This document shows, piece after piece, positions 1,756 through 6,822 of a DNA stretch of 31,815 nt. How positions within the stretch are numbered: the stretch's first letter is position 1; each line of letters begins with the position of its first letter. A program made the translations under genes and the position numbers. The DNA comes from a virus. Taxonomy: Duplodnaviria > Heunggongvirae > Uroviricota > Caudoviricetes. The notes under the pieces were generated by a model. The model was not told the origin of the DNA. It saw only the letters and a list, made by a program, of their open reading frames with translations, and did no database searches. The DNA lies in IMG/VR virus record IMGVR_UViG_2603880148_000002, positions 1 to 31,815 of that record; one strand, 5' to 3'.

Positions 1756-2015
1756 TTAGTTTCCTTGTTTATGCCTTGCTGGTGATGTTCTGAAAAGTAT
1801 AAATGATATTTTTGATTGTAAACCATAGAGCAGAATTATTTTTCTGATGTTGTTTATTGTTTATTTAAATGCAGGGTGGTTTATATCTCGTCTTGTAGTT
1901 TATCCATGCATATCTGCTTGATGATGAGGTTTTTAATTAAGGTATGGTTTTGTGTTTTTTCTGTATTACATGTCAGGTATTTTAAAGAATCATTTTTCAG
2001 ATGGTGGAAAGAACC

Positions 2016-3872
2016 ATGGCATTTAAACACTATGATGTTGTCAGGGCGGCGTCGCCGTCAGATCTTGCGGAAAAGCTGACACATAAACTGAAAGAGGGCT
2101 GGCAGCCGTTTGGTAGTCCGGTGGCCATAACCCCTTATACCCTGATGCAGGCGATTGCAGCAGAAGGTGATGTGGTCGTCAGTGGTGCAACTGAGCCGGA
2201 GTGGTACTACGTCATCGTACTGGCCGGGCAATCCAATGCCATGGCTTACGGTGAAGGGCTTCCGCTTCCGGATTCTTACGATGCGCCCCACCCACGCATT
2301 AAGCAACTGGCCCGTCGCAACACAGTGACTCCCGGTGGTAAAGCATGCGCATTTAACGACATCATTCCGGCAGACCACTGCCTGCATGATGTTCAGGATA
2401 TGAGCGCACTGAATCATCCGAAGGCAGACCTGAGCAAAGGGCAGTACGGCTGTGTCGGCCAGGGCTTACATATTGCCAAAAAACTGCTTCCGTATATCCC
2501 GAATAACGCGGGGATCCTGCTGGTACCATGCTGTCGTGGTGGTTCGGCATTCACCCAGGGCGCGGAGGGGACATTCAGTGCGGACACGGGGGCCAGCCAG
2601 GATTCGGCACGCTGGGGTGTGGGTAAACCGTTATATCAGGACCTGATCGCACGCACCAAAGCGGCATTACAGAAGAACCCGAAAAATGTGTTGCTGGCGG
2701 TGTGCTGGATGCAGGGCGAATTTGACATGAGCGCTGCCACCTACGCACAGCAACCGGACCTGTTCACGGCCATGCTGAAGCAGTTCCGTACTGACCTTTC
2801 CGGATTTAACGCGCAGTGCCATGGCGGCAGTGCTGCAGTTGTACCGTGGATTTGTGGCGACACGACGTATTACTGGAAAAACACATACGGCACACAGTAT
2901 GACTCCGTCTACGGCGCGTACAAAAACAGGGAGAGCGACAACGTTTTCTTTGTGCCGTTCATGACCGACGGTAACGGCAACAACACGCCCACCAACTTAC
3001 CGGCAGAAGACCCGGATATTGCTGATGCAGGTTATTACGGCGCGCAATCCCGTAGTAATGGTAATTGGGTATCGTCAAATCGTCCGACACATTTCAGTTC
3101 ATGGGCGCGCAGGGGCATTATTTCGGATCGCCTGGCAACCGCTATTCTGAACGCAGTTGGTCGAACCAGCGCCTTCATCAGCGGTACCGCACCGGAGATT
3201 AAACCCTCGCCCGGCGGCGACACGCCATCGGGGCCGTCTGATGGTGACACATCCGTTCGTACAGTCTCCCTGCTGCCGACAGCCGGAGAGGCTGCTGCGC
3301 AGGGCTGGACCATCACCGGCGGCAGTGTTGCGCTGGAAGATGGTGTGTTTAAGGTTACCAAGCAGAGCAATAAAACCTGGTCCCTGATGCATCCGGTGGA
3401 TGACGCGGTCTCCCTGCTGACACGGGGTGGCAGACTGAGCTGTAAGTTTCGACTGTCAGGCGCACTGACCAACAACCAGTTCGGTCTGGGAATTTATCTG
3501 TATACCGATGTAGCGTTACCTGACGTCGTGGCGATGACCGGGACTGGTAACCCGTTCCTGATGTCGTTCTTCACCCAGACCACAGACGGCAAACTGAATC
3601 TGATGCATCACAAGAAAGCCGGAAACACAAAGTTGGGCGAGTTCGGGAATTACAGTAACGACTGGCAGACGCTGGAGCTGGTGTTCACCGCCGGCAGTGC
3701 CACGGTTACTCCGAAACTGAATGGAGTGGCTGGCCCGGCATTCCAGGTCATAAAAGACAGTCTGACACTGGGGCTGAATGCGCTGACGCTGACGGATATT
3801 ACCAAAAATGCAGCGTATGGCGTTGAGATAGAAAGTCTGGTGCTGGAGATAAATGCACCGGCATCATCATAA
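2016..3872 (+). CDS. nanS: prophage sialate O-acetylesterase (NanS-p-like) with C-terminal extension
   Basis: N-terminus MAFKHYDVVRAASPSDLAEKLTHKLKEGWQPFGSPVAI... followed by VIVLAGQSNAMAYGEG (SGNH/SASA-type esterase block) as in NanS-p proteins found next to lysis genes in EHEC lambdoid phages. Start taken at the second ATG (2016), which has a GGTGGA RBS; the track ORF starts at 2001. Confidence 0.8.
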   Translation: MAFKHYDVVRAASPSDLAEKLTHKLKEGWQPFGSPVAITPYTLMQAIAAEGDVVVSGATEPEWYYVIVLAGQSNAMAYGEGLPLPDSYDAPHPRIKQLARRNTVTPGGKACAFNDIIPADHCLHDVQDMSALNHPKADLSKGQYGCVGQGLHIAKKLLPYIPNNAGILLVPCCRGGSAFTQGAEGTFSADTGASQDSARWGVGKPLYQDLIARTKAALQKNPKNVLLAVCWMQGEFDMSAATYAQQPDLFTAMLKQFRTDLSGFNAQCHGGSAAVVPWICGDTTYYWKNTYGTQYDSVYGAYKNRESDNVFFVPFMTDGNGNNTPTNLPAEDPDIADAGYYGAQSRSNGNWVSSNRPTHFSSWARRGIISDRLATAILNAVGRTSAFISGTAPEIKPSPGGDTPSGPSDGDTSVRTVSLLPTAGEAAAQGWTITGGSVALEDGVFKVTKQSNKTWSLMHPVDDAVSLLTRGGRLSCKFRLSGALTNNQFGLGIYLYTDVALPDVVAMTGTGNPFLMSFFTQTTDGKLNLMHHKKAGNTKLGEFGNYSNDWQTLELVFTAGSATVTPKLNGVAGPAFQVIKDSLTLGLNALTLTDITKNAAYGVEIESLVLEINAPASS

Positions 3873-3956
3873 AAAGTGAGCCAGTCAAATGGAAGGTATC
3901 GTTAAACTCACCGGTAGTGTCAGTGGGTCGTCTGAGATGCCTGCATGAGTTATCAG

Positions 3957-3988
3957 AGCCATCAGTACTTAACTGGTGGCTTTTTTTA
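3957..3988 (+). terminator. intrinsic terminator-like hairpin upstream of the holin gene
   Basis: Stem AGCCATCAG/CTGGTGGCT (9 bp, one G-U) with 7-nt loop followed by TTTTTTT. Confidence 0.5.
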
Positions 3989-4022
3989 TTGTTGTCAGCT
4001 TCCGGATAACGGGAGACGGGGT

Positions 4023-4238
4023 ATGTACCAGATGGAAAAAATCACAACAGGTGTGTCATACACCACGTCAGCGGTGGGAACGGGCTACTGGTTCCTGCAG
4101 TTGCTGGACAGGGTTTCCCCGTCTCAGTGGGCGGCAATAGGCGTGCTGGGGAGTCTGCTGTTTGGGCTGCTGACATATCTGACTAACCTGTATTTCAAAA
4201 TCAGAGAGGACCGTCGTAAGGCTGCACGGGGAGAGTAA
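4023..4238 (+). CDS. S: class II holin (phage 21 S-like pinholin), 71 aa, with dual-start motif
   Basis: [71 protein letters not shown] closely resembles the phage 21 S pinholin as I recall it. Met1 and Met4 give the usual two starts; RBS GGGAGA upstream of 4023. The track ORF extends further upstream, to 3945. Confidence 0.85.
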
Positions 4239-4242
4239 TTCA

Positions 4243-4587
4243 ATGACTCAAAACTATGAACTGATTGTGAAAGGGATCCGCAATTTTGAGAATAAAGTTA
4301 CGATAACTTTAGCGTTACGGGACAAAAAACGCTTTGACGGTGAAATTTTTGACCTGGACATCTCGCTGGACCGTGTTGAAGGTGCCGCGCTGGAGTTTTA
4401 TGAGGCAGCAGCCAGAAGGAGCATCAGACAGGTCTTCCTGGATGTTGCTGCCGGGTTATGTGAAGGGGATGAGCAGTCGCCGGAAAAGCGCCCCGTAATT
4501 TTAGAGGCGCAGGATGTGTTGATAACCTACAGAGGAAAACTACCGGGAATAATTACGGGTTCTCTGAAGAGTCCGCCGAAATGGTAA
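4243..4587 (+). CDS. hypothetical protein, 114 aa, inserted between holin and endolysin
   Basis: Track ORF starting 5 nt after the holin stop with a GGAGAG-like RBS. No recognisable motif. Confidence 0.4.
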   Translation: MTQNYELIVKGIRNFENKVTITLALRDKKRFDGEIFDLDISLDRVEGAALEFYEAAARRSIRQVFLDVAAGLCEGDEQSPEKRPVILEAQDVLITYRGKLPGIITGSLKSPPKW

Positions 4588-4825
4588 TTTTACCAGCATA
4601 TTTTTCATCCAGTAATACAGCAAGCCGCCTGAAAGAGTCTTGTTGTTCCTGAGACCATTTGGGATTGCATGATTCAAACTGGATTGATGCCAGCGTTGAT
4701 TGCATCTGTTCCCTTGGAATTGAGAATGCCAGATATGAGAAGGCGACGGTAAGGGTATTCACGTCTTCCCGAAGCCTGGAAATGCTGTCGAGCAACTCCT
4801 GTAGAGAAATGGTGTTATTGTCCAT
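4553..4825 (-). CDS. hypothetical protein, 90 aa, convergent with and overlapping the 3' end of the 114-aa ORF
   Basis: Track ORF; AGGA RBS about 9 nt upstream of the ATG on the - strand. No recognisable motif. Confidence 0.3.
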   Translation of the reverse strand: MDNNTISLQELLDSISRLREDVNTLTVAFSYLAFSIPREQMQSTLASIQFESCNPKWSQEQQDSFRRLAVLLDEKYAGKITISADSSENP

Positions 4826-5464: not shown

Positions 5465-5553
5465 GCAGAATATTTTGCTGAAAAATGCGGTTTGCTTACA
5501 CGGACGGATAACACGAAATCCTGCGAACTGACAAAAACTAAGTGAATAAAAGT

Positions 5554-5593
5554 AAAAACCCCGTTTGTTGGCAGCAAGCGGGGTTTTGTTTTT
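5554..5593 (+). terminator. strong intrinsic terminator-like hairpin after the endolysin gene
   Basis: 9-bp stem CCCCGTTTG/CAAGCGGGG with 7-nt loop (5559-5583), then TTTTGTTTTT. Confidence 0.55.
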
Positions 5594-5658
5594 ATGGCAG
5601 TAAGCTATGGGAGGCTGCCTTGATTGATTTTAGCAAACTGATTAGGGAGTTGCGACTC

Positions 5659-5754
5659 ATGATTAGTCAATTACCAAACTGGAAATTTTTGCTGGTCTGG
5701 AGCATCCCTTTTTTATGGGTAGTATCCCAGTTAATTGTGGCAATTAAGGGGTAG
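5659..5754 (+). CDS. small hydrophobic peptide, 31 aa (MISQLPNWKFLLVWSIPFLWVVSQLIVAIKG)
   Basis: Internal ATG of track ORF 5542..5754 preceded by a GGGAG RBS; predicted single transmembrane helix. Confidence 0.25.
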   Translation: MISQLPNWKFLLVWSIPFLWVVSQLIVAIKG

Positions 5755-5756
5755 CT

Positions 5757-5888
5757 ATGTCAGACAAACTCATAACGCCGGCAAAGGTCCTGTGTGTGAT
5801 TGTCGGTATTTCATTTTCACTAATGCTGGTTGCTCTTTTTCTGTCCCTCGCCTGGGTGATGTTGTCTTCGTCGGGGCTGCTGGGGTGA
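5757..5888 (+). CDS. small hydrophobic peptide, 43 aa (MSDKLITPAKVLCVIVGISFSLMLVALFLSLAWVMLSSSGLLG)
   Basis: Read by hand in the frame the track omits (under 60 aa); ATG 2 nt after the previous stop. Confidence 0.3.
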   Translation: MSDKLITPAKVLCVIVGISFSLMLVALFLSLAWVMLSSSGLLG

Positions 5889-6007
5889 CAGTGACTGATG
5901 ACATCAGCAGAGCGCTGGCTTTTGCTATTAAGTGGGTGGCTGTTGGTATTGCTGTGTCTCCGATGCTGTATGGGCTGGCAAAACTGGTCATTGCGCTGAA
6001 ATCGTGA
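5885..6007 (+). CDS. small hydrophobic peptide, about 40 aa (VTVTDDISRALAFAIKWVAVGIAVSPMLYGLAKLVIALKS), GTG start assumed
   Basis: C-terminal part of track ORF 5735..6007; GTG overlaps the stop of the previous peptide. Paralogous to the next peptide (RALAFAIKWVAVGIAV versus [16 protein letters not shown]). Confidence 0.3.
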   Translation: MTVTDDISRALAFAIKWVAVGIAVSPMLYGLAKLVIALKS

Positions 6008-6018
6008 ACTTTAAAAAG

Positions 6019-6105
6019 ATGAGTGCTGAACTTATTCGGGCAATGGCATTTGCCATTCGTATTGTGGCCATTGCTGTTCTGGTCTGGGCAATCCGTTGGT
6101 GGTGA
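6019..6105 (+). CDS. small hydrophobic peptide, 28 aa ([28 protein letters not shown])
   Basis: Read by hand; stop lies 1 nt before the Rz ATG. Confidence 0.3.
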
Positions 6106-6106
6106 T

Positions 6107-6601
6107 ATGAACCGTGTTCTGTGTGTGGTGATTATTGTCATGCTGGTAGCCTGTGGTGTGCTTAGTCTGGGGCTGAATCATTACCGCGATAACGCCATCA
6201 CCTACAAAGCGCAGCGCGATAAAAAAGTCAGTGAGCTGAAACTGGCGAATGCCACTATTACTGACATGCAGCAGCGCCAGCGAGATGTCGCTGCGCTTGA
6301 TGCCAGATACACGAAGGAATTAGCCGATGCGAGAGCTGAAAATGAAACTCTGCGCGCTGATGTTGCCGCTGGTCGTAAGCGCCTGCGGGTCAACGCCACC
6401 TGCCCCGGTACCGTGCGTGAAGCCACCGGCACCTCCAGCGTGGATAATGCAACCGGCCCCCGACTGGCAGACACCGCTGAACGGGATTATTTCATCCTCA
6501 GAGAACGGTTGATGACAATGCAGAAGCAGCTGGAAGGGGCGCAGGAATATATCCGCACTCAGTGCACTAAGCTGGCTTTTTATTATCCGGAGGATACATG
6601 A
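6107..6601 (+). CDS. Rz: Rz, inner-membrane spanin (i-spanin)
   Basis: [39 protein letters not shown]...[24 protein letters not shown] matches lambda Rz as I recall it: N-terminal TM helix plus coiled-coil periplasmic domain. Start at the internal ATG of track ORF 6023..6601. Confidence 0.9.
6327..6512 (+). CDS. Rz1: Rz1, outer-membrane lipoprotein spanin (o-spanin), embedded in the +1 frame of Rz
   Basis: [61 protein letters not shown]: lipobox VVSAC and proline-rich body very similar to lambda Rz1; fully nested inside Rz. Confidence 0.85.
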
Positions 6602-6822
6602 AGAAATTACGGGTAACCGTAGAACCTTTTCAGGGAACAATTCCGTTCCGTATTTTGCAGCGTGGTCGTGTTCTTGTTGAAGGTTCGTTCAGTGGTAAAT
6701 GTACGCAATTACACTCCCGGACCTTTCAGGTGAATGCCACGAATGAAGAGCTAACCGTGGAGTGTACGATGAATGCCGCTAAATGCCGCATGGTATCCGC
6801 TGCATTACAACCAGTGTGTTGA
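6598..6822 (+). CDS. hypothetical protein, 74 aa, translationally coupled to Rz
   Basis: ATG overlaps the Rz stop (ATGA at 6598-6601). No recognisable motif. Confidence 0.45.

Follow-up and report, generated by a model that had tools for sequence, protein, structure and literature searches.

A mosaic cassette of four very small predicted membrane-protein genes between the endolysin and Rz genes of an Escherichia coli prophage

What is encoded in the short interval between the endolysin gene and the spanin gene Rz of a lambdoid prophage, and does it take part in lysis? The question is raised by the Escherichia coli lambdoid prophage in IMG/VR record IMGVR_UViG_2603880148_000002 (Caudoviricetes), whose 31,815 nucleotides (nt), analysed at full length, are referred to here as the window; the query region is 100% identical to E. 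coli strain NCTC86. An original prediction, made from the letters without database searches, had described four consecutive, tightly packed open reading frames (ORFs) in this interval, each encoding a hydrophobic helix. These are designated O1, O2, O3′ and O4, and their coordinates are given in Table 1. The reading that we favour, with a confidence that is about evenly balanced, is that the region is a mosaic cassette of four very small inner-membrane protein genes in a phage-21-like lysis operon, and that these genes would be expressed together and would tune lysis.

Selection and gene models

Four tightly packed small ORFs are present on the plus strand between a hairpin and Rz, with junctions of 1–11 nt or overlaps, and the strong terminator that had been placed ahead of the array is also there. 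The earlier argument that such stop-start packing is improbable by chance did not stand. Chains of at least 4 ORFs arise in 1.3% of dinucleotide shuffles, and chance chains of 3–6 ORFs are found elsewhere in the same window when permissive start codons are used. As a statistical argument for genes the packing is too permissive, and the case for real genes is, in our judgement, a comparative one, in which packing is weak and conservation is decisive.

For the comparison, about 250 related loci were gathered from IMG/VR, RefSeq and assemblies (related loci carry the label L and related proteins the label P, each with a number). For each of the six frames, the ratio of non-synonymous to synonymous substitution (dN/dS) was derived from Nei-Gojobori counts on minimum spanning trees. 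In all four families the ratio is lowest in the sense frame: 0.33 for O2 (97.5 synonymous and 92.5 non-synonymous changes, p = 3e-14), 0.22 for O3 (37 and 23, p = 6e-9), 0.27 for O1 (19.2 and 18.8, p = 9e-5) and 0.38 for O4 (9.5 and 11.5, p = 0.015). The remaining sense-strand frames have values of 0.65–4.8. The mirror antisense frame (−1 for O2 and O3, −0 for O1 and O4) has values of 0.36–0.45, which is an expected by-product.

Relatives with identities as low as about 60% have kept the frames and lengths, with synonymous changes predominating. The variable sites of O3 are distributed 12/2/20 over the three codon positions, and O2 is 43–44 amino acids (aa) long in nearly all of 103 homologue clusters. 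Indels that break the frames in relatives had been named as the observation that would speak against genes, and no frame-breaking indels were found; the sole indel observed among O4 copies adds 3 nt (locus L009) and keeps the frame. A divergent O4 copy in L205, 75% identical, keeps frame and length even though the next gene is not Rz. Among window-type alleles there are 9 variable sites across the 485-nt array, with 5 synonymous vs 4 non-synonymous changes, and these alleles are too similar for selection to be tested within the window type. An O2 homologue of strain O157 Sakai, XECs191 (= ECs_1966), is listed as a novel translated gene (Hücker et al. 2017, PMC5597208), with RIBOseq values of 12.6 reads per kilobase per million mapped reads (RPKM), a ribosome coverage value (RCV) of 0.43 and a coverage of 0.55 in uninduced cultures in LB medium. 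From these comparisons all four ORFs are judged to be genuine genes.

Two other interpretations of the interval were rejected. A 123-aa ORF on the minus strand (5770–6141) owes its open frame to T-rich sense codons and, with the modules standing in a different order in other loci, could not be preserved as a whole. The four ORFs are also not fragments of one decayed larger gene, as each family keeps its own start, stop and length and occurs alone elsewhere.

The predicted sizes of 43 and 28 codons, and of about 40 for the third ORF, are borne out, but the first ORF, taken originally as 31 codons, is most likely 44 aa long and begins at TTG 5620. Exactly at the position of this TTG, the sequence M/V-IDFSKLIRELR opens the homologues from Enterobacter, Klebsiella, Citrobacter, Providencia and Salmonella. 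The ATG at 5659, which opens the 31-aa form, is invariant in all O1 homologues (M14) and has its own conserved Shine-Dalgarno sequence (SD), AGGGAG, at 5644–5649. A dual start giving products of 44 and 31 aa is thus possible. Phage PhiR5_1 has the 31-aa form, in which a new ATG overlaps the stop codon of an inserted 231-aa gene; this suggests that the transmembrane (TM) part is kept translated. An O1 copy in L144 (1864–1998) carries an in-frame TGA at codon 24 with downstream codons still conserved in frame, and could be a pseudogene, a case of read-through or a sequencing error.

The native members of the O3 family are 48 or 60 aa long, read M-x-KYKRILLRLT-MKNGLELKAPVTDD..., and have a conserved SD and ATG; the member in the window, O3′, is truncated at its 5′ end. 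O3 and O4 had been predicted, from a shared motif, to be paralogues that arose by tandem duplication. The paralogy is supported (Smith-Waterman score of 47 vs 23 ± 4.5 for shuffles, p = 1.5e-4), whereas the tandem duplication is not, the two sequences having only 58% nucleotide identity over 22 aligned codons. Chimeric proteins that bridge O3 and O4 were also found (P0048, P0199). O3 and O4 are best described, from their sequences, as old, diverged paralogues that were united by cassette exchange and not by local duplication.

Exchange of parts is seen in other members as well. An extra 49-aa ORF with a single TM segment (MIKAETTPQGADD...) lies between O3 and O4 in L205 (2182–2331), and its N-terminus recurs fused to the O3 body in the Salmonella protein P0050. 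The P0050 fusion shows N-terminal module swapping among these peptides. At the other end, the last codons of O4, CGT TGG TGG TGA, carry the SD-like sequence GGTGGTGA for Rz. The resulting RWW* end (window 6094–6109) is usual in whichever family directly precedes Rz (P0182, P0184, P0186, P0191, P0199), and looks like a conserved junction or a recombination joint. Good SDs precede O1 and O2. It should be noted that Rz starts at 6107 and not at 6108.

The membrane character of the peptides agrees with the original prediction. The Kyte-Doolittle maxima over 19 residues are 2.19 for O1, 2.87 for O2, 1.90 for O3′ and 2.21 for O4, all above the usual TM threshold of 1.6, with one predicted hydrophobic helix per ORF. 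AlphaFold2 models are helical, with helices at residues 4–16 and 21–43 in O1 (predicted local distance difference test, pLDDT, 84) and at 3–16 and 22–59 in native O3 (pLDDT 79–84 for the two proteins). The peptides end in KG, SSSGLLG, KS and RWW. In none of the four is there a charged hydrophilic C-terminal tail of the holin kind, or a periplasmic domain or lipobox of the spanin kind. Once in the inner membrane, the peptides would have hardly any periplasmic portion, and O1 and native O3 would add a short amphipathic helix on the cytoplasmic side.

The array had been thought to be unannotated. This needs correction, since PGAP calls three or four of the ORFs and all four belong to PHROG families: O1 to phrog_6632, O2 to phrog_4906 (E = 4.5e-21), O3 to phrog_1115/3246/4493 (E down to 1e-41 for native O3) and O4 to phrog_4493 (E = 3.8e-6), all of unknown function. 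O2 and O4 are annotated by PGAP, as are O3 (from a doubtful start that gives 51 aa) and, in some cases, a 70-aa O1, always as "hypothetical protein", and the RefSeq entries WP_001043230, WP_001280935 (O2), WP_042004856 and WP_032140280 (O4) are hypothetical proteins too. Searches of Pfam, NCBIfam, PADLOC and PDB sequences with the four peptides and the longer frames returned nothing usable, with no match to PADLOC defence models at E ≤ 1. No Rfam RNA family was found at the locus (locus at E ≤ 1, whole window at gathering score). A profile of O3/O4 run against 1.84 billion representative proteins found 15 clusters only, and no larger or annotated relatives among them. No account of these ORFs and no functional study came up in literature searches by peptide strings and WP accessions or on the subjects of lysis cassettes and morons. 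Databases treat the four families as unrelated singletons and do not show that they form a cassette, that O3 and O4 are paralogues, that O1 probably has a start giving 44 aa, or that O3′ is truncated. What was already known is that the genes are catalogued as hypothetical families; what is new is the cassette picture, the corrected gene models and a prediction of antisense RNA that is described below.

The cassette and its genomic settings

The array in the window is a recombinant. Positions 5465–5894 match the O1-O2-Rz cassette of L096 (85.6%), positions 5889–6300 match the O3-O4-Rz cassette of L207 (96.4%), and the recombination joint lies at about 5889–5894. Among related loci the interval between the endolysin gene R and Rz has several fillings: R-O1-O2-O3′-O4-Rz as in the window, R-O3-O2-Rz, R-O1-O2-Rz, R-O3-O4-Rz, and R-ant-O2-Rz, the last being the arrangement of Shiga toxin (Stx) phages. 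In the Qin and DLP12 prophages of strain K-12 there is no cassette, and R abuts Rz. The cassette follows endolysins of unrelated types, namely the signal-anchor-release (SAR) lysozyme of the window, GH108 (L166), GH19 (L249–L251) and an M15 peptidase (L256). In the Enterobacter loci L249–L251 the next genes are an i-/o-spanin pair. In L257/258 a small ORF lies between a lambda-type holin gene with an unassigned gene for a 161-aa product on one side and a DUF2514 Rz-like gene on the other.

In all the contexts examined, tail operons included, a strong SD precedes the first small ORF and a GC-rich hairpin with T-runs lies roughly 30–45 nt upstream of this ORF; one stem pair of the hairpin shows compensatory changes. 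The hairpin always heads the module, and therefore the "terminator after the endolysin" is part of the cassette and not of the endolysin gene. In the window the hairpin is called on the plus strand; in L117 it is called on the minus strand alone. A scan of lysis-operon contexts gave no plus-strand promoter-like site in the stretch from the hairpin to the first ORF, and no terminator was found before Rz in the window. The cassette can be described, on present sequence evidence, as a portable unit that is made up of a GC-rich hairpin, a short leader with a strong SD, and one to four stop-start-coupled ORFs drawn from the families O1, O2 and O3/O4.

The GC content of the cassette is slightly below that of the flanking genes. 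Upstream of the hairpin, a stretch of about 60 nt in the 3′ untranslated region (UTR) of the endolysin gene (5480–5538) is hypervariable (20 distinct window-type alleles differ at 34 sites, of which 26 lie here), and the first ~86 nt of this UTR are common to Stx-phage loci. Hypervariability between conserved flanks suggests allelic exchange or a structured element.

O2 DNA is present in 1702 of 5426 complete E. coli genomes (31%), with up to 11 copies per genome. DNA of the O2 family is also found in the lysis region of the great majority of those Stx-converting phage records that match the query, and it is unannotated in the reference record of 933W. Protein searches placed O2 and O3 in E. 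coli and Salmonella, and two scans of GTDB species-representative genomes found no convincing relatives of either outside enteric bacteria; what they did return were matches to the pattern by chance, a contig of 328 nt and, in Tumebacillus, a weak match limited to residues 8–25. The 328-nt contig, from Xanthomonas pisi DSM 18956 (L246), carries an O2 homologue and is most likely enterobacterial contamination.

Arrays are also found outside the R-Rz interval. Those of L166 and L205 are followed by a gene for a small lipoprotein with a lipobox LVGC or LVSC (phrog_7528, function unknown; L166 2289–2486, L205 2416–2691). No two-component spanin was found in the L166 locus within the sequence examined.

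Table 1. Coordinates of the small-ORF array, its signals and its neighbours in the window
Feature	Position	Strand	Remarks
S21-like pinholin	4023–4238	+	start of lysis operon
YdfR	4243–4587	+	between pinholin and endolysin
R21-like SAR endolysin, 177 aa	4931–5464	+	PGAP "lysozyme rrrQ"; phrog_7 endolysin match
Endolysin 3′ UTR, ~90 nt	5465–5554	+	contains the hypervariable stretch
Bidirectional intrinsic-terminator hairpin, 15 pairs	5555–5587		T-runs on both strands
Leader hairpin GGCAG...CUGCC presenting SD GGGAGG (5609–5614)	5596–5619	+	from sequence and fold; SD 5 nt before O1 start
O1, 44 aa (most likely), TTG start	5620–5754	+	predicted amphipathic N-terminal helix and TM helix
Candidate promoter inside O1 codons 3–12	5627–5655	−	extended −10 TGCTAAAAT, −35 TCGCAA
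O1/O2 junction	TAG 5752–5754, ATG 5757	+	2-nt gap
O2, 43 aa, single predicted TM	5757–5888	+	SD AAGGGG 5746–5751
O2/O3′ junction	TGA 5886–5888, GTG 5885 or 5891	+	GTGA overlap (5885) or 2-nt gap (5891)
O3′, 38–40 aa, 5′-truncated O3-family member	5885 or 5891–6007	+	GTG start either way
O3′/O4 junction	stop 6005–6007, ATG 6019	+	11-nt gap
O4, 28 aa, single predicted TM	6019–6105	+	ends RWW*; O3 paralogue
SD stretch serving Rz, GGTGGTGATATG	3′ end of array	+	
O4/Rz junction	stop 6103–6105, ATG 6107	+	1-nt gap
Rz i-spanin	6107–6601	+	phrog_13 Rz-like spanin, E = 1.4e-77; PGAP "lysis protein"
Rz1, embedded in Rz	6327–6512	+	ORF carries lipobox
74-aa ORF overlapping Rz stop (ATGA)	6598–6822	+	phrog_2571, function unknown

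Some neighbours of the array should be mentioned. The 74-aa ORF of phrog_2571 is seen again 3′ of Rz in many related loci. A 90-aa ORF on the minus strand (4553–4825; PGAP hypothetical protein WP_000369850) runs opposite the 3′ end of ydfR and the spacer between ydfR and R. Matches at the Rfam gathering score in the window are the small RNA (sRNA) STnc100 (132 bits) and a tRNA, at 1205–1394 and 432–505, both upstream of a sialate-esterase gene (2001–3872). The prophage sRNAs PasA/PasC have been placed in the interval that separates the sialic-acid esterase gene from the holin-lysozyme operon (2026 preprint). That position corresponds to the gap at about 3873–4022 in the window, and not to the small-ORF array.

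Possible roles of the peptides

Under the favoured reading, late transcription antiterminated by Q would produce the cassette together with holin, endolysin and spanins. This transcription would be late only, because in lysis-operon contexts no sigma-70 promoter of its own was recognised for the cassette and the cassette lies behind a terminator. Translation would then run by coupling through the ORFs into Rz, whose SD-like sequence is in the last codons of the preceding ORF, and the peptides would be in place in the inner membrane when lysis occurs. As a best guess, and one that we hold with somewhat less than even confidence, the peptides would tune the membrane step of lysis, be it the timing or efficiency with which pinholin or holin is triggered, the SAR endolysin is set free or the spanins act.

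In Stx phages a late promoter drives the lysis genes together with the stx genes (PMC8065619). If the peptides tune the timing of lysis, burst size and perhaps the release of toxin could be influenced in these phages. Should they play no part in lysis, the locus would remain a clear example of the modular shuffling of microprotein genes in phage late operons.

Several observations weigh against a function in lysis, or against parts of it. None of the four peptides matches models of holins, antiholins, releasins or spanins in Pfam, NCBIfam and PHROG. The terminator at the head of the cassette is left unexplained if the peptides tune lysis. Relatives of O1 lie between the tail genes I and J in Citrobacter and also in a baseplate cluster of Klebsiella, which argues against a strictly lysis-bound role, and the array of L205 is two genes past the spanins. 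Adjacency to lysis genes is frequent and not obligatory. The Citrobacter tail-region copy has an upstream promoter-like site and flanking terminators, and thus co-transcription without a promoter is not universal for the O1 family. With respect to single ORFs, O4 has few independent variants, hence its modest selection signal, and has no recognisable SD; O3′ lacks the native start, the SD and 20–22 N-terminal codons, is preceded by a G-run only, and may be poorly expressed or inactive. The footprints of the O2 homologue in Sakai are weak and come from uninduced cultures. Finally, many lambdoid phages lyse normally without the cassette, so any role in lysis would be accessory, and we do not think that the peptides are essential lysis components.

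A rather unlikely alternative, to which some of these points lend themselves, is that the ORFs encode moron-type membrane proteins unrelated to lysis, with functions, in lysogens or late in infection, in superinfection exclusion, anti-defence or the modulation of host membrane proteins, and that the junction is simply a tolerated hot spot. The presence or absence of the cassette at a fixed R-Rz junction, with its several alternative fillings, is what such elements would give, and its slightly lower GC content agrees with this. The stand-alone O1 insert of Citrobacter, with its own promoter-like site and terminators, and the O1 relative of the Klebsiella baseplate cluster point the same way, as do the footprints in uninduced Sakai and the D-type arrays with the phrog_7528 lipoprotein that follows them. 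However, no promoter-like site precedes the cassette in the lysis-operon contexts scanned, and the terminator heads the cassette rather than ending it, so that expression in lysogens is not expected. In addition, recurrence after several unrelated types of endolysin exceeds what a random hot spot would predict, and the defence models of PADLOC gave no match.

A further alternative comes from the 5′ end of O1. Seven lineages, which include E. coli, Enterobacter, Citrobacter and Klebsiella, all agree at 11 of the 14 third positions in the first 14 codons of O1 (5620–5661), vs 4 of 28 downstream (p = 8e-5); the TM half has strongly diverged. This block holds the candidate minus-strand promoter of Table 1. 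TGCTAAAAT, the reverse complement of 5627–5635 (TAAAAT at 5627–5632), has an extended TG, and apart from it the minus strand of the array has no −10-like hexamer; TCGCAA is the reverse complement of 5650–5655. O3-type modules have TATACT or TATAAT at the same offset of +8 to +13, and a promoter is called there in L117. An RNA from this site would start at about 5620, cover the start codon and the SD (as an anti-SD) and end at the hairpin and U-tract at about 5548, with a length of ~74 nt; its predicted fold has a z-score of −3.6. We consider such a transcript improbable, although it is the prediction to which the nucleotide-level conservation of the block could be tied.

On this basis the first ORF of each cassette could be a toxic or dose-sensitive membrane peptide that is gated by a cis-antisense RNA, as in type I toxin-antitoxin systems or sar/ant of P22, a proposal that we regard as unlikely. 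In its general form, which is a little less doubtful, the hairpin would be the terminator of a conserved ~74-nt cis-antisense RNA, and the portable unit would be a module for membrane peptides under antisense gating, carried in the late operons of many enterobacterial prophages, Stx phages included. If so, the hairpin would always head the module because the antisense RNA ends there, and the RNA would define a threshold at which production of the peptides, and of the translationally coupled spanin, begins. The T-runs on both strands of the hairpin and its minus-strand call in L117 agree with this proposal, as do its roughly constant short distance from the first ORF in every context, the same-offset −10 boxes and the promoter call in O3-type modules, and the good fold of the predicted RNA. 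The size (<60 aa) and hydrophobicity of the peptides match type I toxins, and HokW/SokW provides a precedent for a small membrane toxin that aids Stx-phage release.

Against these points, the promoter was found post hoc, its −35 matches at 3 of 6 positions, and it is not called in the window by the criteria of the promoter tool. The −10 of the O3-type modules varies, with TACACT in some alleles. The conservation of the O1 block fits an internal SD and ATG (the dual start) or a recombination linker equally well. No Rfam antitoxin or sRNA family is matched, no separate plus-strand promoter for a peptide mRNA was found in the lysis-operon contexts scanned, and the accessible part of the EDL933 transcription start site (TSS) supplements holds no matching promoter sequence.

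Very improbable is the last alternative, that some or all of the ORFs in the window are inert, either as recombination remnants (O3′ and O4 especially) or as hitch-hikers that carry signals for Rz: the missing N-terminal codons and SD of O3′, the missing SD of O4 with a 3′ end that doubles as the SD of Rz, the RWW* tendency of families preceding Rz, the in-frame stop of O1 in L144 and window-type alleles too alike for a test of selection within the type would fit it, but all four families are under purifying selection in the sense frame, O4 has kept frame and length in L205 where Rz does not follow, and the truncated O1 of PhiR5_1 has gained a new ATG overlapping the upstream stop.

Comparison with known systems

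For peptides that would tune lysis, the best positional analogue is LysA of phage P2, a membrane protein encoded between the endolysin gene K and lysB/lysC, which in the 1994 work of Ziermann et al. is said to be non-essential and to affect the timing of lysis. The two are alike in position (endolysin, small membrane protein, spanins), in dispensability and in late expression. LysA is reportedly much larger, with several TM segments, whereas the window ORFs have one TM segment each and form a shuffled array, and no sequence relation between them was detected.

Small inner-membrane lysis proteins are also known from the dual-start holin/antiholin pairs S107/S105 of lambda and S71/S68 of phage 21. 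O1 resembles these in having two in-frame starts (5620 and 5659), each with an SD. The window ORFs differ in that they have no charged C-terminal tail, a single TM segment and no match to holins, and the true pinholin gene is found upstream.

The morons of lambdoid phages (bor, lom and gp15 of HK97; the concept of Juhala and Hendrix) are expressed in lysogens and come with a promoter of their own and a terminator downstream. The cassette is like them in being an extra block of membrane-protein genes that is present or absent between conserved late genes and has a slightly lower GC content. The copies in lysis operons differ, with a terminator upstream and no promoter found, and the Citrobacter tail-operon copy is closer to a moron.

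With respect to antisense gating, the sar RNA of P22, which acts on ant, is a precedent. The RNA predicted here is similar to Sok, SymR and sar in that its promoter would lie inside the 5′ coding region, it would cover the SD and it would be about 70 nt long. In the hokW-sokW type I system of the Stx2 prophage Sp5, a small hydrophobic peptide advances growth arrest and phage release (PMC8621323). The window peptides have no homology to Hok, their antisense RNA is a predicted one, and their ORFs are chained with Rz with no promoter of their own found.

Lastly, gp25 of Mu, a releasin (DUF2730, PF10805), is a 99-aa protein of N-out/C-in topology with a 73-aa cytoplasmic domain, and acts on a SAR endolysin (PMC9239132). 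It is a single-TM protein of a lysis cluster that is not a holin, and the window also has a SAR endolysin. Mu releasin is far larger than the window ORFs, which at 28–44 aa gave no Pfam match to PF10805, and the cassette also accompanies endolysins of the GH108, GH19 and M15-peptidase types. By analogy, Mu releasin and HokW show that membrane proteins other than holins can modulate the release of endolysin or the timing of lysis.

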